DNA of 52,290 nucleotides. Origin: Catajapyx aquilonaris (Eukaryota). A program made the position numbers and the translations under genes. How positions within the stretch are numbered: position 1 is the first letter of the stretch; each line of letters starts with the position of its first letter. Positions 12,801-52,290 of the stretch are shown here, one piece after another. The DNA is taken from contig JYFJ02002710.1 of assembly GCA_000934665.2 (NCBI GenBank), positions 1-52,290 on the forward strand, given 5' to 3'. Below the pieces are notes generated by a model. The model searched no databases, was not told the DNA's origin, and saw only the letters and a program-made list of their open reading frames with translations.

Positions 12801-13660
12801 TATAAAATAATAGTTAATAGTTAAAACTCATGAGCATCGTCCACGTAGTACCATACCTCTCGCTGGGATTGCACATCCTCCCTCTCTGCACACACTACCG
12901 CCACTGTCAGGGACAATGAATAAGGGCTGATGGTACTATGGACCTTGCTGATGACTCACCCCAGACAAACAGAGGCACAGACTCAAACCAGTTGTATACG
13001 TTTGTGACCTCATAAACCCGGGTCAAATCCGTTCAATTTTAATAGTTTAAACTATAGCTATTTGCAGACGTACGTGTTCTCTCTCTGAGTTCGCGCGACT
13101 TTTCTCAGGGTCCAAGTTGCCTGAGCTCCACCGTCCGGTATACTCACATTGTAAGGGTTGAAGTGTCCTCCTGTACTGTCACACCCACCGGTGACATCCC
13201 CATTCTCATGGACATGGAAGCCATGCTCACCAGCGGTCAGCCCGGTCACGTTCCCCTGGATGGTCACCGGTCCGAAAGGAGGGTCCTCCTGGTGGAACCG
13301 GACCATACCATGTACCGGACCACCGCTGGGGTCAGTCATCACCACAACAGCATCACGGGCATCAAACTGTGGGGATGATAGTACGGGTGGTGTTCAGACG
13401 GGCATGAACAGGTCTGAACCTGGCCATCATACCTGGTATGACGGGAGTAGATAAGCCTCATAGACGTCGCTGATGACATCCGGTATGCCCACTGCCTTCC
13501 TGGCTACCACCACAGGGTAGTCCACGTTCTGCTGGTCCGGTAGGGGTGGCCGAAACGGGTTCTGCTCGGGCACAATTGGCCCCGGGGCGTTGTTTGGATG
13601 GGGCAGGCCCGAGGCCACCACCACCATTGTTGCCAGGAGGGACAGACACTTGTCCATCAT
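9856..13660 (-). CDS. Sod3: Extracellular Cu/Zn superoxide dismutase (SOD3-like), ~233 aa; exons 13660-13433, 13366-13148, 10110-9856
   Basis: Signal peptide [18 protein letters not shown]; metal-ligand motifs [55 protein letters not shown]; phase-0 GT-AG introns. Confidence 0.92.
10245..10420. repeat. Degenerate ~63-bp tandem repeat in SOD intron
   Basis: Recurring GAATCCCATGCGAATCCAATAAATCT and CTCGAATCAYGACA..AAATC..GTAAATCTC blocks. Confidence 0.6.
11150..12820. repeat. AT-rich low-complexity and short-period repeats in SOD intron 2
   Basis: Recurring ATATCAGTRTTA, TTAATAGTGAAATAGCTAATAAATTTAAATA and TAATAGTTATAAAATAATAGTT units. Confidence 0.65.
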
Positions 13661-18119: not shown

Positions 18120-20657
18120 ATGGCGGAGGAAGAAGGAGAAGTCGAGATGATATCGGAGCAGCCTGGAACCTCCTCATCTGGGAAGGCCTCCGGTGCGGAG
18201 AAGGCCAAGAACAAGATGCCTTGGTCAGTGGTGATGGCCACCCCCACGGATGCCGGGGTCTGGAGTTGGAAGGGGCAAGGGCCTGAAGGGAAAGAGGGAG
18301 TTTCGAACATCCATCAATTTTTTTGTTCTGAACTTTAAGCATTCCCTCAGTTGTTCTTGGCTTTAAAATTATATTTTACAATAAAATTGTGCCTTACATA
18401 AAATAATACTTGGGCCAGTTACATAGGAATTACATTTTATTTGAGTCGTACTGTACATTTGACGGAGACAGCATTTTATTTGAGTCGTACTGTACATTTG
18501 ACGGAGACAGCATTTTATTTGAGTCGTACTGTACATTTGACGGAGACAGCATTTTATTTGAGTCGTACGGTACATTTGACGGAGACAGCATTTTATTTGA
18601 GTAGTACCGTACATTTGACGGAGACAGCATTTTATTTGAGTCGTACGGTACATTTGACGGAGACAGCATTTTATTTGAGTCGTACTGTACATTTGACGGA
18701 GACAGCATTTTATTTGAGTCGTACTGTACAGTTTACGGAGACGGCATTTTATTTGAGTCGTACTGTACATTTGACGGAGACAGCATTTTATTTGAGTCGT
18801 ACTGTACATTTGACGGAGACAGCATTTTATTTGAGTCGTTCAGTACATTTGACGGAGACGGCATTTTATTTGAGTCGTACTGTACATTTGACGGAGACAG
18901 CATTTTATTTGAGTCGTACTGCACATTTTACAGCGAGTACATTACGTAAAGTACATTTCATGAAAGAGGACGGAGACTAATTACGTAAAACATTACATTT
19001 GGGACAAAATGTCAGGCGTATTGCATAAAAATGGGTACTTTTCAAGGGTCGGCCGGTGGGGTTGGAAACTGCATGCTGTACTTGGTAATTGCTTGTAATT
19101 GAGCAGGTGATGGCCTGCAAAGAGAGGGGAAGGAGTGCTCAATCCACCGACTAATTATTTTGCGGTTGCAGGGTTGAAAAGTATAGGCCGCAGACTTTCC
19201 CTGAGATTGTGGGCAACGAGGAGACTGTGTCGAGGCTGGAGGTGTTTGCTAAGCAAGGGAACATGCCCAACATTATCATTGCCGTAAGTTTATTTCGTTG
19301 AACATGCCTGTCCGTTCAATGCACTTGAACAGAGGATTTGTGTTAACCCAAGTTATGTAACACAATCCGGTTTTAAAGTGCTAGATTAACCGTACCGTTT
19401 GTGTACATGAAGCGAGAGCTAGTGTTACCATAACCAAATGATTCATCGAGGTTATGTTATTCCCTACTCGCACACTCATGTTGAGCGTAGTTAGTAGTGA
19501 TAGGCCTCTAGAATATAAGTTCTAATCCTGGTTCTCCGCAGGGACCTCCTGGCGTCGGTAAGACCACCACGATCCTGTGCTTGTGCCGGCGCCTGCTGGG
19601 CTCATCATTCAAGGATGCTGTACTGGAACTGAACGCATCGAACGACCGGGGCATAGACGTGGTACGAAACAAGATCAAGATGTTCGCACAGCAGAAAGTA
19701 ACACTGGAGCCAGGCAGGCAAAAGGTGATCATTCTGGACGAGGCCGACTCAATGACGGAGGGCGCGCAACAAGCGTTGAGACGAACAATGGAACTGTACA
19801 GCCGGACAACGAGGTTGGACAATTACATGGCCATACTGACAAGCTTATTAATGACATACGATATTGCAGATTCGCTCTGGCTTGCAATACGAGCGAGAAG
19901 ATAATCGAGCCTATCCAGTCCCGATGCGCTGTTATCCGCTACTCAAAACTGAGCGATGTGCAAATTTTAGCGAAAGTCATGCAAGTATGCAAGGAGGAAG
20001 AGGTACGACTTGCACATTCCACCCATGATCGCTTTACTAACTAGGTAATTGCAGGTATCGCACACGGATGACGGCCTCGAAGCAATTGTGTTCACAGCGC
20101 AGGGCGACATGCGGCAGGCGCTGAACAACCTGCAGTCTACGTACCAAGGTCTTGGACATGTCTCAAGTGAAAATGTGTTCAAAGTGTGCGATGAACCGCA
20201 TCCGCTTCTGGTGAAACAGATGCTCCAGCACTGCCAAGGAGGAGACTTGGAGGAGGCGTACAAAGTCATGTCGCACCTTTGGCGGCTTGGTTACTCGGCC
20301 GAAGACATAATCGGAAACGTTTTCAGGGTCTGCAAGGGGATGGACATGCCAGAGTGGCTCAAACTACAGTTCGTCAAGGTCGGTTGGGGTTAATTAATTA
20401 GAATAATTACTTTTAATGATATCTAATGACAAAGAATATAATGAATAAAATGACATGAATATAATAATGAAGTGATTGATTGATGAATTAATTACTGAAC
20501 TGATGAATTAATTAATTAGTGAATTAATTGATGTATGGTTGGTTCGTTCCAGGAGATTGGGTTCACTCACATGCGGATTGTCCAGGGTGTACGATCCCTT
20601 CTGCAAATGTCAGGTCTGTTGGCCCGGCTCTGCTTGAAGAGTCAGGAGGTCGCATGA
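18120..20657 (+). CDS. RFC2: Replication factor C subunit 2 (40 kDa), ~349 aa; exons 18120-18223, 19172-19283, 19542-19813, 19870-20002, 20055-20378, 20553-20657
   Basis: PWVEKYRP, Walker [35 protein letters not shown], Walker [11 protein letters not shown] motif (IQSRC), [11 protein letters not shown]; splice phases consistent (1050 nt). Confidence 0.95.
18433..18930. repeat. 39-bp minisatellite, ~12-13 copies, in RFC2 intron 1
   Basis: Head-to-tail unit CATTTTATTTGAGTCGTACTGTACATTTGACGGAGACAG with few substitutions and no spacers. Confidence 0.95.
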
Positions 20658-30469: not shown

Positions 30470-32651
30470 TTACTTCAAGTACCGATAAGGCACATGGTCA
30501 TCTCGCAGCCGATGTCCGCACACTTCCACCACAAACCACAGGCCGGACACAGCCATACCCATCATCCACAGATAGAAGACGTTCCCAAGTTTGTTGATGT
30601 CCAACAGCCGTCCCTTCCTTACCCGCAGACTGTCCGGGTTGTCCCTCAGCATCTTAAAGTACTTGTTTAGAAAGTTCTGGTAGTTGATCCTGGACTCCAG
30701 TTGCTGGAACAGATGTCCCTGGAACGTCCGCCGGATGGTCCTGTCGTGCACCTGGAAGTGGACGTGATCTCGACCGAAGCAGGGACTGGTGTAGGAGTTG
30801 AGGGGCTTCTCCAGCCAGAAGAGGGTCTGCGGATTGCCAGATGCGTCCATGAAGTAGTGTCGCTCTCGGTTGTACAAGTAGTCGACAAGAAGGCAAGCGT
30901 AGTCTGTAGTCTGGGTGGCCTCGATGCAGTCGTGTATGGAGTTGACGATGGTGGTACTCTCCAAAAGCGATCTGTACAATGTAACTTAACATTCTTTTCA
31001 TACAAAGGCATGTTAACCTACCTGTACACTGGATTGTCCAGTTCCTCCAGGATCAGCGAGAGAGCCACGGACACCATGAATGTACTGCCAACTTCCATCC
31101 GGGATTCCAGGAGCTCTGGTGCGTTTCGAGGCAACCTCTCCGGACTCGGAAAAGTGATGAGAGTCACCAGTCTGGTCTTGTACAGCGTGACCACAATCAG
31201 TGCGAAGAACGACATGCATCCATGGAGCGTCCGGGTTCGGACGTACCGGCTTGCTGGTTGCTCCAGAAATTCCCGGAGCATGAACCGAGCATGGGAGGCC
31301 ACGGAGCGGGATTGGTCCAGAAAGCGAAGAACGACGGAGGTTCCAATCACAGCGAAAAGCAGTGCAATCCACATGCTGGGAGCGTACGGCTGGAATATTA
31401 CGTACCATTTGATGTCCTGTCGGGGCGTCCTGGTTACGAAGCCTCCGTGTAAGTACGCAATTGGGTACAAAAGCGCAACGGCTTTGGCCGATATAGGCGT
31501 AAACAGGATCAGACCTAATAATTGAAATAATTACTATGGTATTTTGCAGTACTTGGAAATAACCTACCTGACATGTCGACTTCTCCGCTAACGACAGCCC
31601 TTGCTATCCCAGACAGGCTTCCGTTTGCCAGCAGCTCCTTATCGCTGATCTCCGGAACCACCACGGTCATGGACATGTTGAACACAGCCTCCCAGTACAG
31701 GACCATCTCCTCTTCAAACGACAACGGCATCTCTTTTCTCTTACGTTTTCTAGCGTCCTGCACATCTATGTCTTCGACGAACCCGACAGCCACTTTCTTA
31801 CCATTCATGTTCATTGGAGGGGATGGAAACAGTTTGTGGCGGTCCATCCCTGCAGAGTACGTAAAGCGATTGAGGGAGTCCTCGCCTGATGGCATACAGT
31901 TGTAGCATACGTTGTGTACGATCATGGCTCTGCTGAAGTGTGAGAGCATCTTGAGGGCTATACCACGAACCGGATCGTCGAGAAGGATCGATGGATGCGG
32001 ATCACTCGTGTGGATCATAACCGGATCGATCAGGTTTCTGAGCATGAAGTGAGCCGCAGTGTGCATGATCAGCTCCGGCACACTGGATATGTTTCGGGCC
32101 AATATCAGGTTGAAAGCGCAGGATCCTCCAGGCCACAACCTGGATCTGAGTTCAGGCGGTTGCGTTCTGAAGGACAGCAGATGCTCCGGTTTCCACACCC
32201 ACGGATAGTCTGAAGGGTCGTACTGAAACGAGTCCATCCGACTGATCACAACAGGTCGGTTGATCCACACCAGCATCTCTTGCAGATGACGCAGAAGTTC
32301 CGGATCATCCATACCCACCCCCAAGGAGCACTCGGGGTAATGCCGCTTCAGGATATGACCTACGACCGATGCGACGGCTGCACTCTCTTTGTCCACGTCC
32401 ACCAGCCGGACATTTCCTGACTAAAGAAGCATCAAAACAACTTACATGAAATTTAAAATAAACAAGTATCGGCTTACCGACAATGTAACGAGCAACAGGA
32501 CGGTTAATGTCGCACCAAACATTTTTGTGCGTGCAATGACTCTCCAAGGCGCATTAGAAGCGAGGCAGCTGCAGAGTTTATTTACCTCAAGTAAACCCCA
32601 ATTTCCGGAGAAAGTCGTGCGCCACAAAACCAAGTAAATGACAGTCTTCAT
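30470..32651 (-). CDS. Divergent ionotropic receptor (IR/iGluR-like) 1, ~637 aa; exons 32651-32586, 32420-31568, 31514-31022, 30971-30470
   Basis: IR hallmarks: FPSPPMNMNGKKV, GSLSGIARAVVSGEVDMS (S1), IFQPYAPSMWIALL (M1), LIVVTLYKTRLVTLIT (M2), LDINKLGNVFYLW...FVVEV (M3); splice phases consistent (1914 nt). Confidence 0.82.
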
Positions 32652-33200: not shown

Positions 33201-36200
33201 ATGGCAAGTACTGCTTTGCTCTTTGCTGCTCTTGCGGTTGTCATCTTCGGTACCTTAGGAGCTCCGTACCCAAAGGACTACCACATCGTGTCCACTCATG
33301 TCGTACCGGTAAGGTGGAGCCAGTCTGTGTTGGATTGGATTAGTATGTCCCCTACTCTATGTACAGTACACAAATTGATGAATATTATGCTGGTACTATA
33401 TCGGTCAAAAAGTTCGAGCTCGATCTATGTTCAGCACATTATATGATCGAGTAGATTTAATTGGAAAATTTGCATATTTTTTTATTAAAAAAAATAATCG
33501 GGCGAGTACAAAAAAATTCGGTTTCGAATTAAAACAGTCGCTTATTGTGGACAGCCTACAATAATTAATTAATACATTAATAATTATTAACCAATTAAAT
33601 AATATTTAAAAATCCCGTTCTTTTCCGTCAATCGGAATTGCTGATTGCTATTCATTGTTGATCAAATGTTCATTTCAGTTGATTGTTGGTCGAATATGTC
33701 GATTTCCGTTCATTAATTGTTAATGTAATGATGATTTCTATGGTTAATCGAATGTTGATTTCAGTTCATTGTTAATATCTAATGTTGATTACAGTTCATT
33801 TCCAGAGTCGAATGGTTTGATTTTCATTTGTCAGTCTGATCAGGGAGCATAAATACTACATAAGAGGCGCAAACATTCGATTTCCGCGTCTCTCTGTTTG
33901 GGGCCGTTGCCAACGCTGGCGGCCATCTTGAAGTGTGGGCAACGCCAACGAGGTATAAATAGGGTACAGGCAAAAAATAGGGTCCGCCATCTTTGATTCG
34001 CTCGTGTTCTTGCCGTGTAGTTGCCGTGGCCGCCACAATCATCAAAGATGGCGGACTCTCTTTTTGCCTGTACCCTATTTACCCCTCGTTGGCGTTGCCC
34101 ACACTTCAAAATGGCCGCCAGCCTTGGCAACGGCCCCAAACAGAGAGACGCGGACATCAAAGGCCCCGACAGAAGTTTGCTGGTCTAATGTTTTGATTTG
34201 AGTCCATCGTTATGGCTCGATGTTGATTGTTAATTGGATGTTGGTCCATCCACTTCTGGAGTGCGGTTGACCACAACAAAATTTCAAGTGCTAGCGGTAC
34301 ACTCGAGAAGAGGGGGAAAAACCGCATTTTGTCAGGCAAGCAGGCCACTTTGCACAGTTGTTCCTTCCAGGCCCAACTAATGCTGGATTAGGTTACAATA
34401 TTAATTTGATTTGTTTTAAATGTCCGCAGCACACCACTCGCTTCAAGAGATCCTTGTCGTCACCATCCCACGAGGTAAGTTTCCGTATACCCGGCATGAT
34501 CATGCAGGATTATACAACACCTGCTCATGTCTCATCATCCTCAGACCCGACAAAACCAAGATGAGGATTGTCACTACCTGTCGCTGACCCACGTGGATCC
34601 TGACCTCGACTTCTGTTTCAAGATACATGTAGAGGAAGGCCTGAGGTTGGTCCTGATGGACAAGGAGGGCGAAGAGGAGTTCAAGTTGCCCAACACGCCC
34701 GAGGGGGCATTGGTCAAAGGGTATGCCACGGCCGGGGTCAGGAACTCCTCGGCTCTTGGTTACCTTCACGAGGGACAGTTCTTCGGGCGCCTCGCGGTGC
34801 ACGGGAAGGACTTTGTGGTCGACCATATCCACACGCATGACGCGGAGGGCGCTCCTTTTCCGGCACGTCGGGACCACAAGGCGATAGTGTACCGGCATGT
34901 CGAGCCATCCAACCAAGAAGAGACAGCAGATGATGACGGCAAGGAATTACGGAGGTCCAAGAGGGCAGCTCCAGAGAAGTTCGGGGCTTTCGGGAGGCAG
35001 GCCAAGGAAAAGGTGCCTTTCCATGAGTACAACCCAGTCAGGACCTTCCACCCGGAGAGGTGAGAGTGTATATATGTCACATATATGTCACACAAGCATT
35101 TGCCACACGCCTTTCATATCCACAGGACCTACCCTGTCGTGTGCAGACTGGTGTTCATGGCAGACCACGTGTACTACAAGTTGGTGGCCTCTGGATCGGA
35201 GGGATCCTTGCTGGCCTTCCTGAAGGTCGTCACCTACGCAGTCAACATCCGGTACATCTTCTCGCACGTCAACTACGAACCAGGCAAGCCGAACCCTGGA
35301 ACTAGGTCGGACAACATACGATTCAGAATCAATGATGTAAGTCTCACACCTTTTGTATCTTGAGCGGGGCTCTCGAACCATCAGTTAGTGAGAACTGTGA
35401 GTGTCTTAAAGACTGTGATGACAACACTCTGACTCCTCCTTGCAGATTGTGCTCTTCAAGGATACAGACCAGGAAGGTTATCCGATCACCAGCTCCTTCG
35501 AAGTTACCAACGCACAGTCGTTCCTGGGGGACATGAGCATGGGATTGAACTTGCAGGAGTTCTGTCTAGGGATCGTCGTCTCTGGCCAACTGTTCAAGGA
35601 AGGCCCTCCCGGTGAGTTCCGCATTGTCAATAAAGCAAAGGTCTTCCTTACCTTTTCTTGGCTTGTCAAACAATTGATTGTTTCCAGGTGCCGCCTTCGT
35701 TCCGACTCCGAAGAAGATGACTGGAGGGATATGCGAGGAGACCTTATGGGTTGGAGGCAGGATGATGAGCAGGAACCTGGTTGTCGTCTCGGCAGCCGCC
35801 AGTGAGACGACCCTGAATCCCATGACGAAGACGTCGACCACCATAGCCCACTACATGGCCATAGCCATGGGAGCCAAGGACGAAAAGAGCAAGAAAGAGT
35901 GCCACCCGAAAGGTAAACATCCTATACAAGGCCAGTTAATCCTCTCTGTAATGTCCCTTATTCCGGCTATTCAGACCCGGAGAAGAACGGCTACTATCTG
36001 ATGTACAGCGACGACCAGAGCGGAAACCTCCCGAACCACTGGCTGCTCTCAAACTGCTCGAAGATGGACATCAAGAGCACCTTGAAGGAGAAAATCAACT
36101 GCTTCACTGTTGGTGACACCTCCTACTGCGGTAACGGTGAGTATTATTTTACAGTCCTCCCAAGGGTATAGTCTAACGGTGTCATGTTGGGGCTACCTGG

Positions 36201-39200
36201 CATGATGGGAATCGAAGACATTTTTTTGAAGATGCCATGACGTTGTGTTACTTTGTTCAGGCATCATCGAGCGAGGCGAAGAGTGCGACTGCGGCACTGA
36301 GCACGTCCGGTTCGAGTGTGGGGGTCACAATGACTGTTGCCAACTAGCGTTGCATCCGGAGGAGTGCAAAATCATGTAGGTTGTCGCAGGTCAACTCATC
36401 GCAAACCTATAGGGCCGTATTCAGAGTCAACAACAAGAAGTTAGTGCAGTGCTTTAAACCACGTGACTCAGTTCACTAAGAAAAGTCGCATTCAGAGTCG
36501 CGCTTTAGGCCTAGTGCGGACTTAGTGCGGACTTAGTGCGATCCTACTAAAGCGGTGCACTAAGGCAAAACTTAGTGAACGGGACCCCCTTCTTTTGCGT
36601 CGAACTAACATCGAAATAGGCAGTGGCGGTAGTTTGAAAATAACTTAACAGCTTTTTAAACTGCTGCTAAGCGATTTTTGGCGCTCAATCTTCATTTGTT
36701 TCCCCAGCCTGGGGAAACCAATGAAGATCGTCGCCCTGGGGATTAAATCAACATTAAATGAAGCACGAATGAAGATCGTCGCCCGCCGACCCCAGCTCTG
36801 ATTTTTTTTTTTTCGTAAATTCGTCATTACTAATTATTTAATCATCTAAAATGTGTTTTCAGGTCTATAAAATGTATTAAAATCGAAAAAAACATGAATC
36901 AATATTATTTAAAAGCCCATTTATCGTACAGACGGTGCCCGAAAACCTGCCTGTGAAATTGTGGCAACACCGCGTCTCGCTAGCGCAGTGTTCGAACCTA
37001 GTGCGCTCCTCTAAGTAGGCAGTGAGGCGACTCTGAATGGGAGCAACTAGTGTGGCGCTAATGTGGACCTAGCGTCGCACTACAAGTAGTTAGTGTGAAC
37101 TTTTGCACTGCATTAGCGAACGACTCTGAATACGGCCCATAGAGTTGGCTTGTTGTTTTATTTCCTTGAGAAGACGGATGTGTTGAGTTTGTGTGTGTGT
37201 GTGTCTTTTCAGTATCCCAAAGCCGTGCGCCGACGGAAAGAAGAAGTGCGCGATGTGCGGCGAAGGGAAGAAGGACAAATGCGAGGCAGGCGAAACACCG
37301 TGCGCACAGGGAGAGGTTCCGTGCATACACTGGGCCAAGATGTGCGACGAAGACGAGAAGCCGTGCGTCGCCTGCAACAAACCCGATAGCGTGTCGAAGT
37401 TCTTCCCTCGCGTTTGCACCGAAGCTGAGATCAACGACAATGCCACGAGAGTATGCGACGAGGAGGAGCCGCCGTGCATCCATTTCAGGATGTGCGAGGA
37501 GGAGGAGATCCCGTGCTTCCCGTGCCTGGACATGACCACGACGGACTGCGACAAAGAGATGGAGCTCGAGGGGAAGAAGAGCGGGCTGGCCCGTGAGAAG
37601 TGCGAGAATAACCAGAACCCCTGCAGACCATTGGAAGAGTGCGGGACTGGAAAGAAGTCCTGCAAATTTTGCCCCAAATCCGGAGATTGCAGGGAGAAGG
37701 ACGGCTCGTTCAAGGAAGGCTACTGCGACACGGACCGTTTGGAACCAGAGCTTCCGTGCGCGGTGGACAAGCTGTGCGAGCCTGGCGCCAGTCCCTGCGT
37801 TTTGCGGGAGGTCGCCGCCATGACTAGGGATTGCCCAGACTTCCATCGGGACGAGCCGCCGAATTACGTCCTGTGCCAAAACTACACGTTTCCTTGCAAG
37901 CTTATGCCAGCCTGCACCGATAACTCGAAGGCCTGCGACCCTCCAGATGAGGGTAAGTATTGCCAAGATGGGGTGCCATGCGCCCCGAAGACGGAGGCGT
38001 GCAGATTGTATAGTATACCTTGCCTCGTGGAATGCCCCGAGGGCAAAACCTGCACAGATAATGAGCTGTGCGGCCCTACCAAGAAGCCGTGCGTCAGTCC
38101 CAAGCTGTGCTCATTCGGAGAGAAGCCCTGCACCATGTGCGGCCAGCCAGGGTACCCGGAGTGCTCGACCTGCGACATAATCAAAGCCTGCGGGAGTGAC
38201 ATGGTGCCCTGCGTCGTGAAAAAGGCCTGCGAAGATACGGAGACGCCGTGCAGGTGCGGAAATGGAGACGAAACGTGCGATCAGATCTACGGGCTAGAAG
38301 ATGTTGAACGCGTTTGCTTTCCGAACGAGGTGTCGTGCTTACCAAGGAAGGTGTGCACCGGAAGCGAGGGTCCGTGCAAAAGTGACAGGGTAGATCCGGA
38401 TTGCCCCCCAGCGGCAGATGCTTATGACTGCTCGCATGACGAAATGCCGTGTCAGTGCAAGAAGGCTTGCGATAAGGGCGAGAAGCCCTGCCTGATGAAA
38501 GCTGACTGGGACAAGTGCCAAATAAGCAACACCAGTCTCACCGTCGATGAGCGAAATTGCTCCGATGCGGATATCAGGGAGTGCTATGCCAACACCTACC
38601 CCTGCATTGAAGCGAAGCAATGCAAGGACGACGAGTGGCCCTGCACGAGATGCGGCAAGCCAGGGGAGCCCTCGTGCACCGACGGTGCATGCGTCGCAGA
38701 GTGCTCCAGACGTGCTTGCACAACATCATGCGCGAGACCCTTTTGCAACCAAAGCTGCGAGTTCCGGTATTTTGACACGTCGTTGAACATTCCTAAAGGC
38801 TGCTGGCGTGGCAATTGCCTCAAGGCCTGCAGCGAGGAATCTCGACCATGCTACGACGAATGTTGGGAATGCGACGCCGCCTGCTCGACCGAGGCCTGCC
38901 TGGGAACATGCGCTGATATCAGGAAGATGTGCGATGTAGAATGCTTAGGTGTCGTTCCTGAGGGCGTGTGCGGCAACAAGTGCGATCTGAATCACAAGAG
39001 ATGCGACAAGGACTGCGAGTCCCAGAAGAAGAGCTGCCTCTGGGCTTGCAAACTCTGCGTGAAGGGATGCGAAAAGTGCACGACCTGCTCGATGGAGGAG
39101 ATGCCGTGCGAACACAAGCCGGTGTGCGGGTCCGAGAAGACACCCGAAAAGGACAATTGCTTCCGGATGCCGGTGGCGTGCGTGGTGTGCAACAACTCGT

Positions 39201-41245
39201 GCACCGAATTGGAGGTGACGGAAGGTGGCAACGAGACACGGTGCGACCCAGGGGTCAGATCCTGCGAGGTGAACAAAGACACACACTGCCAGATGCTAAA
39301 GACTTGCGCGGAAGATGAGACGCCGTGTGTGCAATGCGGCGCCGCAGGACAGGAACCCTGCAGTGGATGCGTCGACAAGTGCAAGCCTGGGGAACTGCCG
39401 TGCTTGCGTCCGGTGATGTGCGATAAGAGCGTCGGCCCGTGCTACGTGGCCGGCAGCAGCGACGAGGATAAACCGTCCAAGTGCTTCCAACCAGATGTGA
39501 AGGTGGACAGGGAGTGTTTGACAAACGAGATATCGTGCGTGTGTCCGACGAAATGCGCGGAAGACGAGGAGCCTTGCAACCTCTGCGAGGGATACGAGTG
39601 TAGCTACGTCGAGAACCCGTGCGCTCCGGGCCAGTTCAGGTGCGCCCGTGCGCGCGACTGCGGCGAGACTGAGGTGCCGTGCTGTCAGAAGGTGTCGAAT
39701 AGTTGCAGTGAGGTGAACTGCGGTGCTGCGGAGCTTCCCTGCCTGGAGGAGATGCTGTGCGAAGAGGGGGTTCTTCCGTGCGTGCCCTGCGGCAAGGCGG
39801 ACCAGCCCAGGTGCGGAGACTGCAACATCACGTGCAAGCCGAGCAAGAGGCCCTGCAGAATCCGGCCCATGTGCAGCTTGGAGGAAGCCCCTTGCTGTCC
39901 GATCGATAACACAACGTGCGGAACATCCAAGCTGTGCAATAAAGACGAGGTTCCTTGCAAGCGCATGCCCATGGAGTGCAAGCTGGGACAGGCACCTTGC
40001 AAGGAGGATTGCATGGTCGATGGCAAACGGGATCCATCGTGCTTGCAGTGCGATTTGCTGCCGTGGAGCGAGACGGAGAGGGAAAAGCCTTGCGTGATGC
40101 CGAGGCAGTGCGATCAGTACGAGGTTCCGTGCATACTGTGCGGACGTGAAGGGCAGGACCCGTGCACCAACTGCTCCAAGCCGTGCGACTACGGGGAGTT
40201 CCCGTGCAGGAGGGTCGAGCCGTGCAAAGCCGAAGACCCGTGCGGAGCGACATCCAAGTCGGGCGAGTGCAGGCCGAGCGAGCTGCCTTGCCAGGCATAC
40301 AGGGACTGCCAACCACTAGAAGTCCCTTGCGTCAGGTGCGGAGGGAGCAGGGACGAGCCGAAATGCGAGGACGTGAAGCTGCCCAAGATGGCCTGCGGCT
40401 TTGCGGACCTTCCATGCGTCTCTGTTGTCCAATGCGAGGACGAGTATCCATGCTGCAGCAACGAATCGCTGTGCAAGAGGCAGTGCGACATTGGCGAGGT
40501 GGCGTGCAGAAAGGCGGAGGCATGCGAAGAGCGGCTGCCGTGCGCAGAATGCGACGAGCCGCAGGAATGCTCCGAAGTCCTTCCTCCGGAGTGGGCCTGC
40601 GACTACGACAAGATTCCGTGCCTCCAGGTGATGCCTTGCAACGAGAATGAACAGCCGTGCTTCCCGTGCAGGACCGACGTCGAGTGCTACGCTGTCCTGG
40701 CCCCCTTGGTGCCGTGCAGGGCAAACCAGATCCCGTGCAAGAAGCCCGAAATGTGCGGAAAGGACAGGCCATGCGTGTACTGCAATGCTCCTCGCCAGCC
40801 CATGTGCGGGAAGGGTCAGGTTCCGTGCGCTGGAAACCAGGTTCCGTGCCAGAGGGCCATACCCTGCGACAAATTAGGGAAAGGGAAAGCCCACTGCACC
40901 AAGCCCAAGGAGTGCGAGCTCGACGAGAGGCCCTGCCTCCCGTGCGGGAACATCGGGGAACCGGAGTGCGATGCCAAAAACGATGATTATCGGGTCTGCG
41001 ATCCGAACGAGGTCCCCTGCACCCCGCAGGAGCTTCCGTGCCAGCCCAGTCCAATGGGGAAGGAGAAGCCCCTGTCCCCGTTCTACGCCCTTACCAAAGA
41101 CACCATACGGCAAAGGCCATACGGAGATCAGAAGGAAGGATCGGCGTCTGCTGCCCTGGGCAAGGCCTCGGCTCTCTTTTGGTCATGCGTCGTGGCGATG
41201 GTCCTCACCGGTGGAAACGCCATCGCCCTTGTCCTGCTTAGGTGA
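33201..41245 (+). CDS. ADAM10/17-like pseudo-metalloprotease A fused to a giant Cys-rich repeat ectodomain, ~1859 aa; exons 33201-33308, 34430-34474, 34545-35059, 35126-35336, 35446-35611, 35688-35912, 35975-36136, 36261-36375, 37213-41245
   Basis: Signal peptide; RFKR and RRSKR furin-type sites; CRLVFMADHVYY; FCLGIV; degenerate Zn motif HYMAIAMGAKDE; Met-turn GYYLMY...SGNLPNHWLLSNCS; disintegrin start YCGNGIIERGEECDCG; phase-2 junction matches the 4033-nt exon; hydrophobic C-terminus. Confidence 0.85.
33841..34180. mobile_element. Foldback MITE family 1 (CAGGGAGCAT termini), one end truncated
   Basis: ~130-bp inverted arms; same sequence recurs at 42676-43026 and 44576-45284. Confidence 0.85.
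36412..37138. mobile_element. PIF/Harbinger-like MITE
   Basis: 17-bp perfect TIR GGGCCGTATTCAGAGTC ... GACTCTGAATACGGCCC flanked by a 3-bp ATA duplication; subterminal inverted CATTCAGAGTCGC copies; non-coding. Confidence 0.8.
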
Positions 41246-41552: not shown

Positions 41553-44500
41553 ATGGGTTGTTTGTTCTTGGCTGCTCTTTCGGTTGTCATCACCGGAACC
41601 TTAGGAGCTCCGTACCTCAGGGAGTACCACATCGTGTCCACTCATGTTGTACAGGTAGGCTCCGTGTGAATGACACAGACTTCCTCTAATCTTCCTCATT
41701 CTGTCCGCAGCACACCCTGTTTAAGCGATCCACTTCGTTCCACCCCGTAAGTTGCCGGTACCCAGTTGTACAACATGTGACTTAACCAGTCTCTATCAGC
41801 AGGCCTGGCACCACCATGAAGGATGCCACTACCTGTCGCTGACCCACGTTGATCCTGACCTTGACTTCTGTTTCAAGATACATGTAGAGGAAGATCTGAG
41901 GTTGGTCCTGATGGGCAAGGAGGGTCGAGAGGAGTTCAAGTTGCCCAACACGCCCGAGGGGGCATTGGTCAAAGGTTATGCCACAACAGGGGTCATGAAC
42001 TCCTCGATTGTTGGTTACCTTCACGATGGACAGTTCTTCGGCAGCCTCATGGTGAACGGGAAGGACTTTGGGGTTGACCATATCCACACACACGAAGGGT
42101 ATGTTACGGAGGGTGCTCCTTTTCCGGCCCGTCGGGACCACAAAGCGATAGTGTACCGGCTTGACCATATTGTACAGTTGGATGACCAAGAAAGGGTTGA
42201 AGAGCAGACAGATGACCTGAGGAGGTCCAAGAGGGCAGCTCTAGAGAAGTTCGGAACTTTCGGGAATGCGGCCAAAGAAGTGGTGCCATTCCATGGGTAT
42301 AACCCAATGAGGACCTTCCACAAGAAAAGGTGAGTCACACATGTGATGACCACGCAGGTTCACTTATAGGACGACCCTCCACAGGGATTACCCGGTGGTG
42401 TGCAGACTGGTGTTCATGGCAGACAACGAGTACTACAGGTTGGTCTCTGGGTCTGAGGATTCTTTGCTGGCCTTCCTGAAGGTCGTCACCTACGCAGTCA
42501 ACATCCGGTACATCTTCTCGCACATTAACTACGAACCAGGCAGGCCGAACCCTGGAACTAGGTCGGACAACATCAGGTTCTGGATCCATGATGTAAGTCA
42601 AAAAGGCCGGCGTCACGATTTGAGCCTCGGTCGCACGACCAGACGCTTTGCGACCGACAATTGGTGCGACCGAGGCAGGGAGCATAATTATACTACATAA
42701 GAGGCGCAAACTTCTGTCGGCGACTTATGTTCGCGTCTCTCTGTTTGGGGCCGTTGCCAAGGCTGGCGGCATTTTGAAGTGTGGGGAACGCCAACGAGGT
42801 ATAAATAGGGTACAGGCAAAAATAGATGGTTGTGGCGGCCATGGAAACTACACGGGAAGAACACGCGCGAATCAAAGATGGCGGACCCTATTTTTGCCTG
42901 TACCCTATTTATACCTCGTTGGCGTTGCCCACATTTCAAGATGGCCGCCAGCCTTGGCAACGGCCCCAAACAGAGAGATGCGGAAATCGAATGTTTGCGC
43001 CTCTTATGTAGTATTTATGCTCTCTGACCGAGGCTCAAATCGCGAGGGAGTAAACAAGGATATTTTCCCACAAACTACAACCTCCTGCAGATTGTGCTGT
43101 TCAAAGATACAGAAGGTTACCCGATCAAGAAAAGTCCCTACGACGTTACCAACAACGCCCAGTTTTACCTGCAGGAGTTCAGCATGGGGTTGAACTTGCA
43201 GGAGTTCTGTCTAGGGATCGTCGTCTCTGGCCACGTTTTCAAGAGAGGTCCTCCCGGTGAGTTCCTCATTGTCAAAGCAAGGTCTTTCTTACCCTTTTTT
43301 TTTTTTTTGGCTTGTCAAATAATTTTGTTCCAGGTGCCGCCTTCGTTCCGACTCCGAAGAAGATGACTGGAGGGATATGCGAGGAGACGATATGGGTTGG
43401 AGGCAGGATGATGAGCCGGAACCTGGTTGTCGTCTCGGCAGCCGCCACAGCCACGAGTCTGAATCCCGTGAAGAAGACGTCGACCACCATAGCCTACTAC
43501 ATGGCCATGGCGATGGGAGCCAAGAATGAAAAGAACAATGCCACATGCCACCCGAAAGGTAAACGGTCCCCTACACACATACATAAACCCGCAGAAAGTT
43601 TGTTGGTATGTATGTATACGCCCGAAATACCTAACACACTTCTAGAGTGCTGAGAGTGCTGAAACTGGTCACACTGCAGATTCAGGGAAAAGTCCGAAAA
43701 CTACAATTTTTTAAACAAAATTATTGTGGCACAGATTTCGCCGAGAAGGGCTACTATCTGATGTACAGCGACGACCTGGACGGAACCAGGAGGAACCACT
43801 GGCTTCTGTCAGGCTGCTCGAAGATGGACATGAAGAACATATTGATGGAGAAAGCCAACTGCTTCCTTGTGGGGGACACCTCGTATTGCGGAAATGGTCA
43901 GTGTCCTCCAAGGAGAAACGGCAATGCATGTTTACGTGCCCTCACAGATTTTTGAGCCTCGGTCGCACGACCAGACGCTTTTGCGACCGACAAATGCCTT
44001 GTTTTTTGTCGGTCGCAAAGAGTCTGGTCGTGCGACCGAGGCTGATGACATCGTGAGGGCGCTGTAAAAACTGATCTTTACTTCATCATATATGTTACTT
44101 TCATTTGTGCAGGCATCATCGAGGAAGGAGAAGAGTGCGACTGCGGCACTAAGCACGTACCGTTCCAATGCGAGGGTCATACAGGCTGTTGCGAACTAGC
44201 GATGAACCCGAAGGAGTGCAAAGTCATGTAGGTATCGCCTCTTCCACTGTCTCGCGAGTCAACTCATGCGAACCAGATTGGCGTACTTTGTTATACTTGA
44301 ACGCCTTGAGCCTCGGTCACACGACCAGACAAAAAATGGGCCCCCATACAGTCCGTTAAACCAAAGAATGATCTGACGTCACTTACCTACTCCGATCCCT
44401 CCAATCATGTCCTCGGATCGCTCTTCAAGCAAACTACTGCTAATGCTTAAAAAAAATACGGCTAGTGTGACTACGTCAGATCGTTCTTCGACTTTACATG

Positions 44501-47500
44501 CCTCCAGTCGTCTCGAGCCAATTCTTGTCGGTCGCAAAGCGTCTGGTAGTGCGACCGAGGCTCAAATCGTGAGGTCAGGGAGCATATACTACATAAGAGG
44601 CGCAAACATTCGTCGATTTCCGCGTCTCTCTGTTTGGGGCCGTTGACAAGGCTGGCGGCCATTTTGAAGTGTGGGTAACGCCAACGAGGTATACATAGGG
44701 TGCAGGCAAAAATAGGGTCCGCCATCTTTGATGGTTTTGGCGGCTATGGCAACTACACTGCAAGAACCAGGGCGAATGAAAGATGGCGGACCCTATTTTT
44801 GCCTGTACTCTATTTATACCTCGTTGGCGTTTCCCCCACTTTAAAATGGCCGCCAGCCTTGGCAACGCCCCAAACGGAGAGACGCGTACATCAAAGCCGC
44901 CGACAGAAGTTTGCGCCTCTTATGTAGTATATGCTCCCAGATAAGAGGCGCAAACATTCGATTTCCGCGTCTCTCTGTTTGGGGTCGTTGACAAGGCTGG
45001 CGGCCATTTTGAAGTGGGGGCAACGCCAACGAGGTATAAATAGGGTGCAGGCAAAAATAGGGTCCGCCATCTTTGATGGTTTTGGCGGCCATGGCAACTA
45101 CACGGCAAGAACACGCGCGAATCAAAGATGGCGGACCCTATTTTTGCCTGCACCCTATTTATACCTCGTTGGCGTTGCCCCCACTTCAAAATGGCCGCCA
45201 GCCTTATTGGCAACGGCCCCAAACAGAGAGACGCGGAAATCAATGGCGCTGATCGAAGTTCTTATATGTAGCATATGCTCCCTGGTGAGGGCGTGAATAG
45301 CTAGGCCTCATGTGTCACCGTTTGGTGGTGTCATTTCAGAATACCGGAAAGGTGCCTGCCGGACGTGAGGAGCTGCGCGATGTGCGGCGGATGGGACCTG
45401 AGGTCCTGCGATCCTGAGGAGATACCGTGCGCCGAGGGCCGGGTTCCGTGCATACAGTGGGCCAGCAGATGCATGGGCGCCGATCCGTGCGTCGGATGCA
45501 ACACGGACAACGGGACCTTCTTCCGTCGCGATTGCGAGGACAGCGACGAAGGAAGGATATGCAATTCTACGGAGCTACCGTGCATGCGATTCAGGATGTG
45601 CGACGAAGGAGAACTCCCGTGCTTTCCGTGTCTGCGCATGAGCGATGAACAGTGCGACGATAAGCTGGGAGAAAAGAAGGAAAGGACCGGGTTGTCGTAC
45701 GACAGGTGCAGGGACGGACACCAGGTTCCGTGCCATCTCCGACAAGCGTGTCCGCCTGGAGCTAAGAGCTGCATCATGTGCGACATGAGCGACGACAGGT
45801 GCAGGCACCAGAACGGGTCGTTGCTGGAAGGGTATTGCGACACGGACCGATTGGAACCGGAGCTTCCGTGCTTGGAGGAACGGACGTGCGATCCGGACGA
45901 GATGCCATGCGTTCCATGGACGGTGGACCCAAAGGTCCGGAACATGTGCCCAGAGATCGTGGCGAGCCAGTGCCTACCCAACACGCTACCGTGCAGGCTG
46001 ATGGACATCTGCCCAGAAGACGCGGTGTCTTGCAACGGGACGGACAACAACACAGGTCCGTACTGCTACAGAAACAGGCAGTGCACAGCGAAGACCGAGG
46101 CGTGCAAGAAGGGTACGGTCGCTTGCTTCGTGACTTGCCCCGATGGACGGAAGTGCACTCCGACCGACCTGTGCGGTGTGACCAGGAAGCCGTGCGTCAG
46201 TCCCAGGCCTTGCGATAATGACACGCCATGCATCATGTGCGGACAGCCAGGGTATCCCGAGTGCAGCTACTGCGAAAGTCCCCTGGCTTGCAGGCCGGGA
46301 GAGGTGCCGTGCGTGCCGAAGAGGACATGCGAGGACAGCCACGAGCACTGCAAGTGCAGACCTGGAGACGAAACGTGCAGGAAAGTCCCGGGACAAGACG
46401 ATGCCGATCGGTACTGCGAGACGAACGAGGTGTCGTGCTACCACAGGAGAAAGTGCACTGGAAACCTGGGTCCGTGCAGGATGGACGGAGTGCCGGATGA
46501 TCCGGAGTGTCCGGGCACGGACGAGGAATGCGGGGTCGATGAGGTGCCGTGTCGGTGCATGGTTCCGTGCGGGAATCACGAGACACCGTGCGTGAGTTGC
46601 GCTCCCAACACGTACCCTTGCATGGAGCCGAGACAATGCGAGGGCGACGAGTCCGGGTGCGTCAGATGCGGCAGGTCAGGAGAGCCAGCGTGCGTCAGTG
46701 AGAAGTGCAAGAGCCGGTGTTTGGACGACGCATGTTCGTGTTTCAGGCCCAACTGTACGGCCACATGCGGGACCGACTGCGACCTCTCCTGCACGACCCG
46801 GTCCTGCATGGAAACCTGCGGGGACCTCAGGAAAATGTGCGAGGCCGACTGCGCACTGGATGGGTGCGTACAAAAGTGCGGAGTGTACCACGCCAGATGC
46901 AGCAAGGACTGCGAGTCCAAACGTGAGAGCTGCATCTGGGCTTGCAAACTATGCGTGAAAGTGTGCGACAGTAGCAATACCTGCTCGCTCGAGGAGGTGC
47001 CGTGCTATCCGAAACCGAAGTGCGAGTCAGGACAGGCGCCGGAGACACACGGGTGCGTGCAGGTGCCGGTGCCGTGCCAGATGTGCAACGACACGTGCAT
47101 AGGCAGGAAGCGGACTGACCCGGACAACCCGCACGAGGTCAATCCGCACAGATGCGAACCTGGAGTCAGCTCGTGCGAAGTGAACCACAACACCGGATGC
47201 CAGGAGCAGGTCGCGTGCATGGGCGACACGGATCCGTGCGTGTTATGCGGATATCCGGGAGGGGAAGAGTGCAAAGGAGGTGTCGATCATTGCAAACTGG
47301 GTGAGCTGCCATGCGTGCGTCCGAGGGTGTGCACCAATGAGGACACGCCGTGTCATGGAGACAAGTGCTTCCAGCCCGGTGTTGAAACGGATAGGAGGTG
47401 CTTAAAGCATGAGATACCGTGTGTCTGCCCGAAGGCGTGCGAGGGCGATGAGACGCCTTGTACCCCGTGTCGTGGCCATGAGTGTAGGACAGCGAAGAAC

Positions 47501-49183
47501 CCGTGCGTACCGGGGCAGATCTCGTGCGTCCTTGCCCGTGACTGCGAGTATAACGAGGAGCCGTGCTGTCACAAGGGGGCGCCAGATTGCGATGAGAACT
47601 ACTGCGGTACGGCCGAGCTGCCGTGTCTGATTAGGAGACAATGCGAACAGGACGAGACGCCGTGCGTTCGTTGCGGCGACGTGTACGAGCCACAATGCGG
47701 TGACTGCAACGTGACCTGCAAGGCGAACCAAAGGCCATGCAGGATCCGACCCATGTGCGAACCAGGTGAGGTGCCTTGCTGTGATGCCAACGACACGTCG
47801 TGCATGATAACAGGGGATGCATGCAGGGAAGATGAGGTACCTTGTAAGTACATGCCAAGGGAGTGCGAGCTGGGGGAGTCGCCTTGCAAGTACGTGTGTC
47901 CTCCGGGTGCTACAGATTGCGTGGTGTGCGGGAGGATGAAACCGTGCGTGGAGCCTAGACATTGCGATCCGGGCGAGGTACCGTGCATCCTGTGCGGACT
48001 TGAAGGACAGGAGATGTGCACTAACTGCTCGAAGCCGTGCGACTTCGGTAAGTTTCCGTGCAGGAGAGTCAGACCGTGCCATCGGACAAAGCCGTGCGAC
48101 AAGTGCAGACCAAGCGAACTGCCTTGCCAGATGACTGTTGCGTGCAGGGAAGGTATGATCCCGTGTGTACAGTGCGGTGGAAGCTGGCGAGAACCGGACT
48201 GCGATGATGTGAAGCCGCCTCAAATCCCATGCAACTTTTCGACCCTTCCGTGCATACCGGCTGTGCCTTGTACGTACGAGTATCCATGCTGCGATAATCC
48301 AGACAAATGTAAACGAAAGTGCGACTTGGGCGAAGTGTCGTGCGTCATGGCACGGCGATGCGGGAAGGAACTTCCGTGCACAAAATGCAACGATCCGCTG
48401 TCATGTTCCAAGATCAGGCACCCGGAGAAGCCGTGCCGGTACGACGAGGTTCCGTGCATCCAGGCGACGCCGTGCAAACCGGACGAAACTCCGTGCGTCT
48501 TGTGCGAGAAGAGCTCCGTCGAGTGCAAGAACAACTCTGTCGAGTGCAAGAACATCTCTGTCGAGTGCAAGAACAACTCTGTCGTGTGCAAGAACATCTC
48601 TGTCGTGTGCGACAACAACTCTGTCGTGTGCGACAAGAACTCTGTCGAGTGCGACAATGTGCAGGATCCCAAGCGACCCTGCTGGCCCCACGAAATCCCA
48701 TGCACTGTGCCCGAAATGTGTGGTGAAGATCCGCCATGCGTGTACTGCAGCGCTCCAGGCAAGCCCGTGTGCAAGTACCGGCAAAAACCGTGCCGTGGAG
48801 ACCAGGTTCCGTGTCTGAGAGCCACGGAAATCAACGATTCTTGGAAGACCTTCCGTGACTTGGTACTTACCAGATTCTGCGAGTTTGGCGAGACCCCGTG
48901 TCTGCCTTGTGGGGACTTCGATGAACCCGACTGCCTGGATAATCCATGCAAGCCCAACGAGGTCCCATGCATCCGGACTACGTTGCGGTGCCAGCCCGAT
49001 CAAATGGGGTCGAAGAAGCCGAAGTCCAGGTACCAATCACAGACGAGCGACGACGCCATACGAGTGAGGCCATACGGACATCATAACTCGGCATCTGCCC
49101 TGCTGGGCAAGACCCCAGGACTGTGCATCGTGGCGTTGGTCCTCCTCATCCGAAACGAGTTTTTCAGGGTTCAATGTTACTAA
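41553..49183 (+). CDS. ADAM10/17-like pseudo-metalloprotease B (tandem paralog), ~1795 aa; exons 41553-41654, 41711-41746, 41800-42329, 42385-42592, 43091-43256, 43334-43558, 43735-43896, 44113-44227, 45340-49183
   Basis: Same nine-exon structure and phases as gene A; Zn motif YYMAMAMGAKNE; GYYLMY Met-turn; CGNGIIEEGEECDCG; 3844-nt Cys-rich terminal exon with hydrophobic C-terminus. Confidence 0.85.
42676..43026. mobile_element. Foldback MITE family 1 with 7-bp TSD, nested in a family-2 element
   Basis: CAGGGAGCAT...ATGCTCTCTG termini; ACCGAGG duplicated at 42669-42675 and 43027-43033. Confidence 0.88.
43952..44043. mobile_element. Short palindromic element family 2 (GAGCCTCGGTCGCACGACCAGAC...); further copies at ~42618-43040 and ~44306-44568
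   Basis: ~40-bp inverted arms AGCCTCGGTCGCACGACCAGACGCTTTTGCGACCGACAA / TTGTCGGTCGCAAAGAGTCTGGTCGTGCGACCGAGGCT. Confidence 0.8.
44576..45284. mobile_element. Tandem dimer of foldback MITE family 1 (44576-44940 and 44941-45284)
   Basis: Outer termini CAGGGAGCAT / ATGCTCCCTG flanked by GTGAGGT and GTGAGGG; the second copy lacks its first ~16 bp. Confidence 0.85.
48513..48657 (+). repeat. 21-bp coding tandem repeat (SVECKNN-like, ~7 copies) in gene B
   Basis: CTCTGTCGWGTGCRASAASAW units; absent from the equivalent position in gene A. Confidence 0.85.
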
Positions 49184-49331: not shown

Positions 49332-50255
49332 TCAAAACATTTCGTCCGAGGGCGAAGACCTGATTATCACTACAATCAGTACTATCGCAATCACTATCGT
49401 CATGACCATGAGCTTCCTCCTCTTGAACACGTCCTTCACCCCATTGGCACACATCTGGCCGCAAGAAGGCTTGACAGGTACGTCCTCCATGTCCTGGTGA
49501 GACAAAGACAATGCAATCAGCGTAAGGTACAGACAACTTATGCCGGACATACCTGTTGAGGATGATGGTTTCCTTTTGTGGTTGGTCCTGTAATCATCGG
49601 TATCCTTTGCTCTTCGTCGTTTGAGCCCATGACGATGACTTGTAGGGGTGGGTCAGTGCTGGAACAGCAGATAATAAAGATGGTTATTACACGCTCTAAC
49701 AGGAAGACTTCCAGGAGTACAGTAGCAGCCACGGCATGTCTTGGAGGTGAAAGTGACATACCTGGCTGCCCTCTTCATGTCTTCCAAATGACTCAGTATG
49801 CACTCAGTCACCTCGGCGTCTGTCGATACTTGAACTGCCGTCTTCCCATTGTTGTCTCCCACTTCGCAACCAGCTCCAGATTCCAGGAGGGACCGGACCA
49901 CCTCCAGGTGTCCGTACTTTGCAGCAAGATGCAAGGGCGTCTCTCCGTCGTTGGTCTGTCCATCGACATCAGCTCCTGATTGAACTAGAAGGTAGCACAC
50001 GTCCTGGTATCCACCCTTGGCAGCCTCATGCAACGCCGCGCGTCCGTGGCTATCCCGCGCGTCCGGATCGCCCCCATTTTGTAACAGCACTTCGCACACC
50101 AAAATGGCTCCAGTACCAGCCGCAACGCTCAGTGCAGTTGACCCTATACGACATCGTTCATTCACATCAACTCCTAAGTTCAACAGCTCCTTAGTCCGTT
50201 TCAGGTTGCCCGTTTTAGCAGCGACATGGAGATCGTTCACTCGTGTCTCATCCAT
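49332..50255 (-). CDS. Tail-anchored ankyrin-repeat protein, ~253 aa; exons 50255-49762, 49658-49553, 49493-49332
   Basis: Four to five ankyrin repeats (LHVAAKTG, GSTALSVAA, GRAALHEAAKGG, GETPLHLAAKYGHLEVVRSLL); C-terminal KRRK followed by LMVMTIVIAIVLIVVII; splice phases consistent. Confidence 0.82.
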
Positions 50256-50644
50256 CGTTAGACTGTCCAAATAACCGTGATTCGGACCTTATCATCGGTA
50301 TGGTTCTCATATCGCATGAACTCTCGGACTTTGATAGGAGGTTATAGTGTGAAGCAGGCGTTGGGAGCACATGTTCGAATCATGTCGACTGCGCAACATT
50401 CAAAAAAAAAAATTATGAACTTAAATAAGCTGTAAAATGTAATTAATCAACAATCTGCACATTGGTGTAGGTCGAGTTCCAACAAAGTTATCACAGATAG
50501 TTTTTACCCTTGAAAGACTTGGATCAACAGCTGATACGTTGCAACACGATAAAACGCTGTTTATACACACGCATCATTCTCTTATCAGACAAGTTGGAGT
50601 GCAATGACTACAGACGTACGAGGCCGCAAAAGTGGCTCGAAATT

Positions 50645-52195: not shown

Positions 52196-52290
52196 AGTGG
52201 GGGCTCTTAGCGAGATGAAGGGGACAAGTTGGACAAAAGCACCAAACTTTGCATGGAGTTTTGTTTGGTCCTATGCTAATAGTTTTTGGT

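Follow-up and report, generated by a model that had tools for sequence, protein, structure and literature searches.

Genes A and B, which lie in tandem on the forward strand of a 52,290-nucleotide stretch of the Catajapyx aquilonaris genome (GenBank assembly GCA_000934665.2, contig JYFJ02002710.1, positions 1 to 52,290; hereafter the window), encode proteins that are 52% identical to each other and that we consider probable ADAM10-like pseudoproteases, that is, non-catalytic binding proteins of the cell surface that are probably held there by a glycosylphosphatidylinositol (GPI) anchor. As far as sequence can tell, their metalloprotease-like domain would be unable to hold a catalytic zinc and would offer no general-base Glu. 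Both genes belong to a larger group of relatives in this genome, referred to below as the dead family.

The zinc motif of active ADAM proteases, HExxHxxGxxH (PMC9597634, PMC9187072, PMC8467561), is degenerate in both proteins. A preliminary description of the window had claimed that this motif is erased in both paralogs while the motif Gly, the Cys that follows it, the Met-turn and an RRSKR maturation site persist, and the two 36-base stretches do translate in that way: positions 35849-35884 give HYMAIAMGAKDE in exon 6 of gene A and positions 43495-43530 give YYMAMAMGAKNE in exon 6 of gene B. One of the three His ligands is left in gene A and none in gene B, the Glu is Tyr in both, and all four of the persisting features are present in each protein, just as the description had counted them. 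In other ADAMs, an E-to-Q change abolishes activity, and a lineage-specific loss is described for frog ADAM15 (PMC3055250). When the exon-6 sequences of ten paralogs are combined into a profile and aligned to human ADAM10, the motif falls in register without a gap, in an alignment that is weak by itself (E 0.15 for the exon alone); the same gap-free register appears in family alignments with intact paralogs. Nor is the resemblance a matter of chance, since a profile of the whole dead clade reaches 174 bits against ADAM10-like proteins. Homology of the prodomain and the metalloprotease domain to the ADAM family (M12B) is seen in blastp searches with gene A, which reach ADAM10-like proteins at up to E 7e-30, and in the match of an intact paralog to human ADAM10 at E 5.6e-29; a Pfam search with single exons gave no Reprolysin match. 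The same intact paralog matches ADAM17, which the description had taken as its reference, at E 7.7e-21, and ADAM10 is thus the closer solved relative.

Erasure of the motif is true of A and B as the description had it, but "both paralogs" understates a loss that is older than the pair. A search of the genome with exon 6 returned 10 matches among 11 candidates, on 8 contigs, and the zinc motif is absent in all ten copies. These ten rows form one clade with support of 100/100, a grouping that holds with the 12 motif columns deleted (100/100) and again in a 28-row tree (97/97), and we therefore take the zinc site to have been lost once, before the duplication that gave rise to A and B. Two pairs of copies, C1804/C2534 and C3688/C4455, are 98-99% identical with a synonymous distance (dS) of 0.11-0.13 and may be alleles, so the family would comprise 8 to 10 loci. 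Across the family 55 columns are invariant, including the six cysteines of the domain, the motif Gly (G410 in gene A) and the Met-turn (M433), and the helix-core positions are invariant as well.

The residues at the former catalytic positions vary widely. At the first His position the ten copies carry His (once, in gene A), Tyr (six), Ser (two) or Gln (one); at the second, Ile, Met, Arg (five), Glu (two) or Gln, and never His; at the third, Asp (six), Asn, Lys, Glu or Pro. Glu is absent from its own position throughout, where Tyr (seven copies) or Leu (three) stands. Asp is the third ligand in some metzincins, and gene A has His at the first ligand position and Asp at the third, the latter shared by six of the ten copies; on these grounds one can imagine that gene A has a remodelled metal site of His403, Asp413 and possibly Tyr404 whose chemistry is residual or altered. 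We regard such a site as very improbable, since the second His of gene A is Ile and its Glu is Tyr, the first His is missing from nine of the ten copies, gene B included, and no His column is invariant. The His403 codon (CAC) lies one base from the TAC (Tyr) codon of six relatives. Retention of this His and reversion to it are equal in steps, which reduces an earlier candidate explanation, reversion, to a tie, and there is therefore no sign of selection for a ligand. The preliminary description had also proposed that hydrophobic residues fill the cleft and keep it for binding, a reading that the family does not support. A bulky hydrophobic residue stands in for Glu throughout the family, but hydrophobic filling of the zinc site itself is peculiar to A and B: the second His position is hydrophobic in these two genes only, being Arg, Glu or Gln in the other eight copies, and the third is hydrophobic in no copy.

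A dead active site within an intact gene under purifying selection is the mark of an ADAM pseudoprotease, and A and B appear to carry it. By Nei-Gojobori counting between paralogs of this genome, the ratio of nonsynonymous to synonymous rates (dN/dS) for A against B is 0.44 in the metalloprotease-like domain (confidence interval, CI, 0.30-0.66) and 0.54 (CI 0.46-0.63) in the long cysteine-rich stalk described below; exon 6 taken alone gives 0.65, and its CI spans 1. Nine of ten paralog pairs have dN/dS of 0.04-0.51 over exons 6-8, with an upper CI below 1, and the stalk gives 0.23-0.61 in nine of nine pairs. The proposal that A and B are non-catalytic and yet maintained is now very likely. Decay, which the preliminary description had named as an outcome that would count against its proposal, is not what the paralog ratios indicate; with dN/dS below 1 in nine of ten pairs, the genes are therefore not pseudogenes. 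Ratios of 0.44-0.54 are admittedly relaxed for a conserved gene, but the idea that A and B are decaying pseudogenes is hardly credible given frames that stay open over 5.6 and 5.4 kb and splice sites that are all intact after a dS of 0.33 in the head (34545-36375 vs 41803-44227) and 0.78 in the stalk, and given CIs for head domain and stalk that exclude 1. The contrast between these two dS values possibly reflects gene conversion of the head or an inflated dS in the stalk. Of the eight introns, only intron 5 can be matched between A and B, at 77% identity.

Where the dead family came from was addressed by similarity, trees and introns. The dead-clade profile ranks ADAM10-like proteins first (70-174 bits). 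Canonical ADAM10 scores 78-123 bits, ADAM17-type proteins reach 82-101, ADAM12-type proteins 28-29 and mind-meld 9; for mind-meld, ADAM12, ADAM17 and Kul, the sequences from this genome are partial, which lowers their scores. With an intact paralog as the query, 30 public proteins were retrieved among 637 candidates, with "ADAM10-like" proteins of several invertebrates on top. A quick tree of 45 rows, made without two near-duplicate dead rows and five public rows, and a tree on 28 of the 45 rows (92/97) both place the dead clade outside canonical ADAM10/17; in the trees, a mind-meld-type gene on contig C1020 groups with ADAM12. The intron positions of the dead genes are shared with the ADAM10-like genes C5793a, C5793b and C5262, and the two introns that Kuz and Kul have in common are absent, in a comparison that contains spurious micro-exons in some rows and trimmed 5' parts of C1804 and C2534. 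These patterns suggest that the nearest relatives are the invertebrate "ADAM10-like" proteins rather than ADAM17 or mind-meld, and a purely genome-specific expansion, considered as the source of the clade, was revised in view of such relatives in other invertebrates. An independent loss in the ADAM10/17 branch, as the preliminary description had it, is accordingly favoured by similarity, trees and shared introns but not proven, as an approximately unbiased (AU) test did not reject joining the clade to mind-meld (p 0.40). Loss of the zinc site is in any case not unique on the ADAM10/17 branch: the scorpion ADAM10-like protein XP_023218512.1 has separately lost the Glu and the third His there and keeps two His, and this genome contains two Glu-less genes.

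The latter emerged from a Reprolysin_2 search of the genome, whose 12 matches derive from 10 genes: two canonical ADAM10, one ADAM17, one ADAM12-type, four intact ADAM10-like and two Glu-less ADAM10-like genes that also lack the third His (the labels Kuz, Kul, ADAM17, ADAM12 and mind-meld were assigned from motifs and tree neighbours). On C4771 (L040; 3400-7800, minus strand), two ADAM10-like genes lie in tandem; both retain two His but neither the third nor the Glu, and they probably reflect a second inactivation of separate origin.

Several results weigh against our interpretation of A and B or of their origin. None of four alternative placements of the dead clade was rejected by AU tests on 20 rows, among them its grouping with canonical ADAM10/ADAM17 (p 0.13 and 0.32) and the joining of one Glu-less gene to it (p 0.17), both Glu-less genes falling outside it in the trees. 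Both careful trees that include mind-meld gave long-branch warnings, and the 28-row tree does not resolve its backbone and so does not fix the deeper position of the dead clade. The paralog pairs behind the dN/dS values are not independent, and the two copies that lack a stalk, C528a and C528b, have dN/dS of 0.75-0.78 (0.78 over exons 6-8, CI 0.51-1.28), indistinguishable from 1. Partial structure predictions were of low confidence: exon 6 alone reached a predicted local distance difference test (pLDDT) score of 51.2, with a helix at residues 47-59 spanning the motif, and an 80-residue piece of the stalk reached 39.8. Both models were too poor for a fold search. Finally, orthologs in other species were not found in our searches, with exon 6 matching none of 14 candidates among longer proteins, an exon-6 profile retrieving no ortholog from 1.84 billion representatives, no usable match in the ESM Atlas to exon 6 or a part of the stalk, and none in phage records. 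This absence is weak evidence, because the queries were short or repetitive. The sole match to the exon-6 profile (E 4.9e-4) was rejected as spurious, being a low-complexity protein without ADAM features.

Beyond the dead active site, the overall build of the two proteins sets them apart (Table 1).

Table 1. Predicted features of genes A and B, by position in the window
Feature	Gene	Position	Strand	Basis or remark
Gene, nine exons, 1859 amino acids (aa), no internal stop	A	33201..41245	+	Predicted from GT-AG sites and homology
Exons 1-5	A	33201-33308, 34430-34474, 34545-35059, 35126-35336, 35446-35611	+	
Exons 6-9	A	35688-35912, 35975-36136, 36261-36375, 37213-41245	+	
Signal peptide	A	33201..33260	+	Hydrophobic N-terminus by hydropathy; cleavage site inferred
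Upstream furin-type site RFKR (aa 40-43)	A	34439..34450	+	Gene A only
Prodomain boundary furin-type site RSKR (aa 188-191)	A	34953..34964	+	Predicted cleavage
Metalloprotease-like domain, exons 4-7	A	35126..36136	+	Six cysteines invariant in dead family
Degenerate zinc motif, H403-E414	A	35849..35884	+	His1 kept, Glu to Tyr404, His2 to Ile407, His3 to Asp413, Gly kept
Met-turn methionine, M433	A	36001..36003	+	
Disintegrin start only, exon 8	A	36261..36375	+	Pfam Disintegrin and alignment
Last exon: 1343-aa stalk, then anchor region	A	37213..41245	+	199 Cys, net charge -65
R-x-R-P-Y motif, small-residue spacer, terminal hydrophobic stretch	A	41108..41242	+	GPI-signal-like
Gene, nine exons, 1799 aa, no internal stop	B	41553..49183	+	Predicted from GT-AG sites and homology
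Exons 1-5	B	41553-41654, 41711-41746, 41803-42329, 42370-42592, 43091-43256	+	
Exons 6-9	B	43334-43558, 43735-43896, 44113-44227, 45340-49183	+	
Prodomain boundary furin-type site RSKR (aa 187-190)	B	42223..42234	+	Predicted cleavage
Degenerate zinc motif, Y406-E417	B	43495..43530	+	His1 to Tyr, Glu to Tyr, His2 to Met, His3 to Asn
Met-turn methionine, M436	B	43761-43763	+	
Disintegrin start only, exon 8	B	44113-44227	+	Pfam Disintegrin and alignment
Last exon: 1280-aa stalk	B	45340..49183	+	195 Cys, net charge -45
R-x-R-P-Y motif, small-residue spacer, terminal hydrophobic stretch	B	from 49061	+	GPI-signal-like

Like ADAM10/Kuzbanian (human ADAM10, PDB 6BE6 and 8ESV) and ADAM17, the A and B proteins have a signal peptide, a prodomain and furin-type sites, an M12B fold with its Met-turn and cysteines, and the CGN-EECDCG start of a disintegrin domain. 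The statement in the preliminary description that the furin sites are kept is right for the boundary site in both genes but does not extend to the upstream site. Unlike ADAM10 and ADAM17, A and B have lost the zinc site and the catalytic Glu, their disintegrin domain ends after about 37 residues (the Pfam match covers positions 1-26 of 75 at E 0.018, below the cut-off), and in place of the ADAM Cys-rich domain and cytoplasmic tail there is a novel stalk with a GPI-like end. Neither a full disintegrin domain nor the transmembrane segment of the ADAM family is seen in either protein. In both, the hydrophobic stretch is terminal, with no cytoplasmic tail behind it, and five paralog sequences have similar ends; by eye, we read this pattern as a putative GPI-anchor signal. 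The invertebrate "ADAM10-like" set, which takes in proteins of Asterias, Centruroides (the scorpion protein named above), Leptinotarsa (XP_074036906.1) and Lamellibrachia (KAI0219165.1) together with six genes of this genome, contains several short proteins and some with a hydrophobic C-terminus, as in the dead family, but 29 of 30 public "ADAM10-like" hits retain an HExxH-type motif by alignment or scan, unlike A and B.

The stalk makes up about 72% of each protein, is acidic and consists of degenerate six-Cys modules of about 40 aa each, with a C-x4-5-P/S-C pattern that occurs 61 times in A and 63 times in B, as against about 9 in shuffled sequences (maximum 19 in 500 shuffles). Of the 192 aligned stalk cysteines of gene A, 188 are kept in gene B. 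The stalk has no match in Pfam, the PDB or a set of 5.8 billion proteins (none of 707 candidates for the gene A stalk), a part of it found no usable match in the ESM Atlas, and none of the 30 public proteins matches it in a blastp with gene A. A suspected motif likeness to the charged, Cys-rich repeats of the barnacle cement protein CP20 is unsupported because the stalk and its module profile are unmatched in the PDB and Pfam. In the middle of the stalk (residues ~1009-1131 of A and ~975-1057 of B) the proline-rich modules give way to a dense C-x3-C pattern, and a similar block occurs in a second stalk exon of C395 and C1804. Between about 48530 and 48660, the gene B stalk holds a recent-looking insert of a 7-residue tandem repeat rich in N-glycosylation sequons.

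A cysteine stalk follows the head in A, B, C395, C1804, C3688 and C2534; C4455 is interrupted by the contig end, and in three of the ten copies (C528a, C528b and C382) none was seen. In C528a and C528b, the head and disintegrin stump are followed by a short GPI-like end with R-x-x-P-Y and a hydrophobic stretch. The head is therefore the common unit, and the early end of these two copies, shortly behind the stump, makes it most likely that the stalk is a later gain of one subclade. Other pieces of the family were noted elsewhere: on C1804, about 27 kb separate the first stalk exon from a second one downstream (L051, 33500-37500), which has a GPI-like end; further copies of that exon lie on C2586, C10297, C2226 and C2146 (L052-L055), with a presumed linkage to heads; C3740 (L045) carries an isolated family prodomain exon at 9476-9832, with no further exons found in the 12 kb examined; and a 624-aa Ser/Thr-rich, mucin-like open frame (L033, 8128-9999, minus strand) lies upstream of the C528 copies.

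The size, acidity and cysteine conservation of the stalk, together with its constraint in every pair compared, could mean that the stalk is the working part, as a structural or adhesive protein that is cross-linked by disulfides and belongs to cuticle, glue or the coat of eggs or sperm, with the dead head serving mainly in folding and export or being shed as in mammalian sperm ADAMs, which drop their dead domain (PMC11266112). We find this rather unlikely, however, as the head is constrained as much as the stalk or more, the stalk is not seen in those three copies, the R-x-K/R-R sites of A and B are all ahead of the head and none is elsewhere, and the CP20 likeness found no support.

Under the pseudoprotease reading, A and B would be secreted by way of the signal peptide, with a prodomain that aids folding and is then cut off by furin, as is described for ADAM17 (PMC10148629). 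A GPI anchor would hold the protein at the cell surface, the disulfide-bonded stalk would keep the dead protease head far off the membrane, and the head would bind a partner outside the cell, whether in the matrix or on a gamete or other cell. The zinc site would have been lost once, in the ancestor of the ten copies, from within the expanded invertebrate "ADAM10-like" set, and the stalk would have joined later. Binding would more likely involve surface loops, as in ADAM22, than the old cleft. The ADAM22-LGI1 complex is a precedent for a dead ADAM domain as a binder (PMC5906670, PMC11266112), but the precedents cited in the preliminary description do not serve as cleft binders: ADAM22 contacts LGI1 through its surface and not its pseudo-active site (PMC11266112), by loops with Trp398, Tyr408 and Tyr409 (PMC5906670), and the sperm ADAMs, of which ADAM2 and ADAM3 are pseudoproteases (PMC9114714), discard the metalloprotease-like domain (PMC11266112). 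ADAM11/22/23, sperm ADAM2/3, UNC-71 of C. elegans and mind-meld also have their zinc ligands and Glu replaced with the Met-turn kept (PMC11266112), and a non-catalytic role at the surface is a likely parallel by analogy; unlike A and B, these proteins have full disintegrin, Cys-rich, EGF and transmembrane domains and a cytoplasmic tail.

The dead head might instead regulate active proteases, either as a decoy that draws off TIMP-type inhibitors or by trapping substrates alongside the active ADAM10-like paralogs. TIMP binding requires zinc, the cleft residues are widely changed, and a stalk of some 1300 aa would be expected to set the head far from membrane-proximal sheddases, so that we think this distinctly unlikely, even though the genome has the four intact and two Glu-less ADAM10-like genes, two canonical ADAM10 genes and one ADAM17 gene alongside which such a regulator might act and pseudoenzymes often regulate their active relatives (PMC11266112).

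The surroundings of the pair hold mobile-element-like sequences and other genes. A palindromic element of about 350 bases, resembling a miniature inverted-repeat transposable element and having internal inverted arms that are 90-100% complementary, occurs four times in the introns of A and B (33840-34190, 42680-43030, 44575-44940 and 44930-45290), and a second, short inverted-repeat element, which in places flanks the first, occurs in the gene B introns (42613-42660, 43938-44060, 44305-44335 and 44525-44572). Two long open frames on the minus strand flank the pair (30470-32420 and 50645-52270) and look by eye like divergent ionotropic receptors. In mitochondrial sequence, cox1 is followed by a tRNA-like stretch with a TAA anticodon, which ARAGORN did not call, and then by cox2, an order that points to a pancrustacean. 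Further gene pieces at 9856-10158 and 13058-13393 (minus), 19512-20393 (plus), 2265-4141 (plus) and 49653-50288 (minus) resemble, again by eye, two Cu/Zn superoxide dismutase genes, a replication factor C subunit and ankyrin-repeat genes.

ADAM pseudoproteases as such are known, and single dead ADAM10-like proteins are already in public databases; motif loss alone is ordinary, and the interest of A and B rests on the family and its architecture. The excerpts of a 2024 review name as dead ADAMs UNC-71 and those of vertebrate sperm and brain, with no ADAM10 or ADAM17 among them (PMC11266112), and no description of an expanded non-catalytic family of invertebrate ADAM10-like proteins with such an architecture was found in the literature covered, which included few subscription papers. 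Here, an ADAM10-like subfamily appears to have lost its site a single time and to have expanded, so that it now counts about ten copies. Its usual membrane-proximal domains were dropped, and it gained a stalk that is unmatched in the databases searched and is itself a candidate for a new Cys-rich repeat. It is a tentative thought, and one we would not call likely, that the result is a lineage-specific family of GPI-anchored recognition proteins, with a dead ADAM10-like head on a previously undescribed six-cysteine stalk, acting in cell-cell or gamete recognition in an arthropod. If true, these proteins would have converged on the sperm and synaptic ADAMs of mammals from the other main branch of the ADAM family, with the relatives in this genome marking stages of the change. 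Intact, Glu-less and fully erased, these relatives form a natural series in which to ask what the metzincin fold does without zinc.

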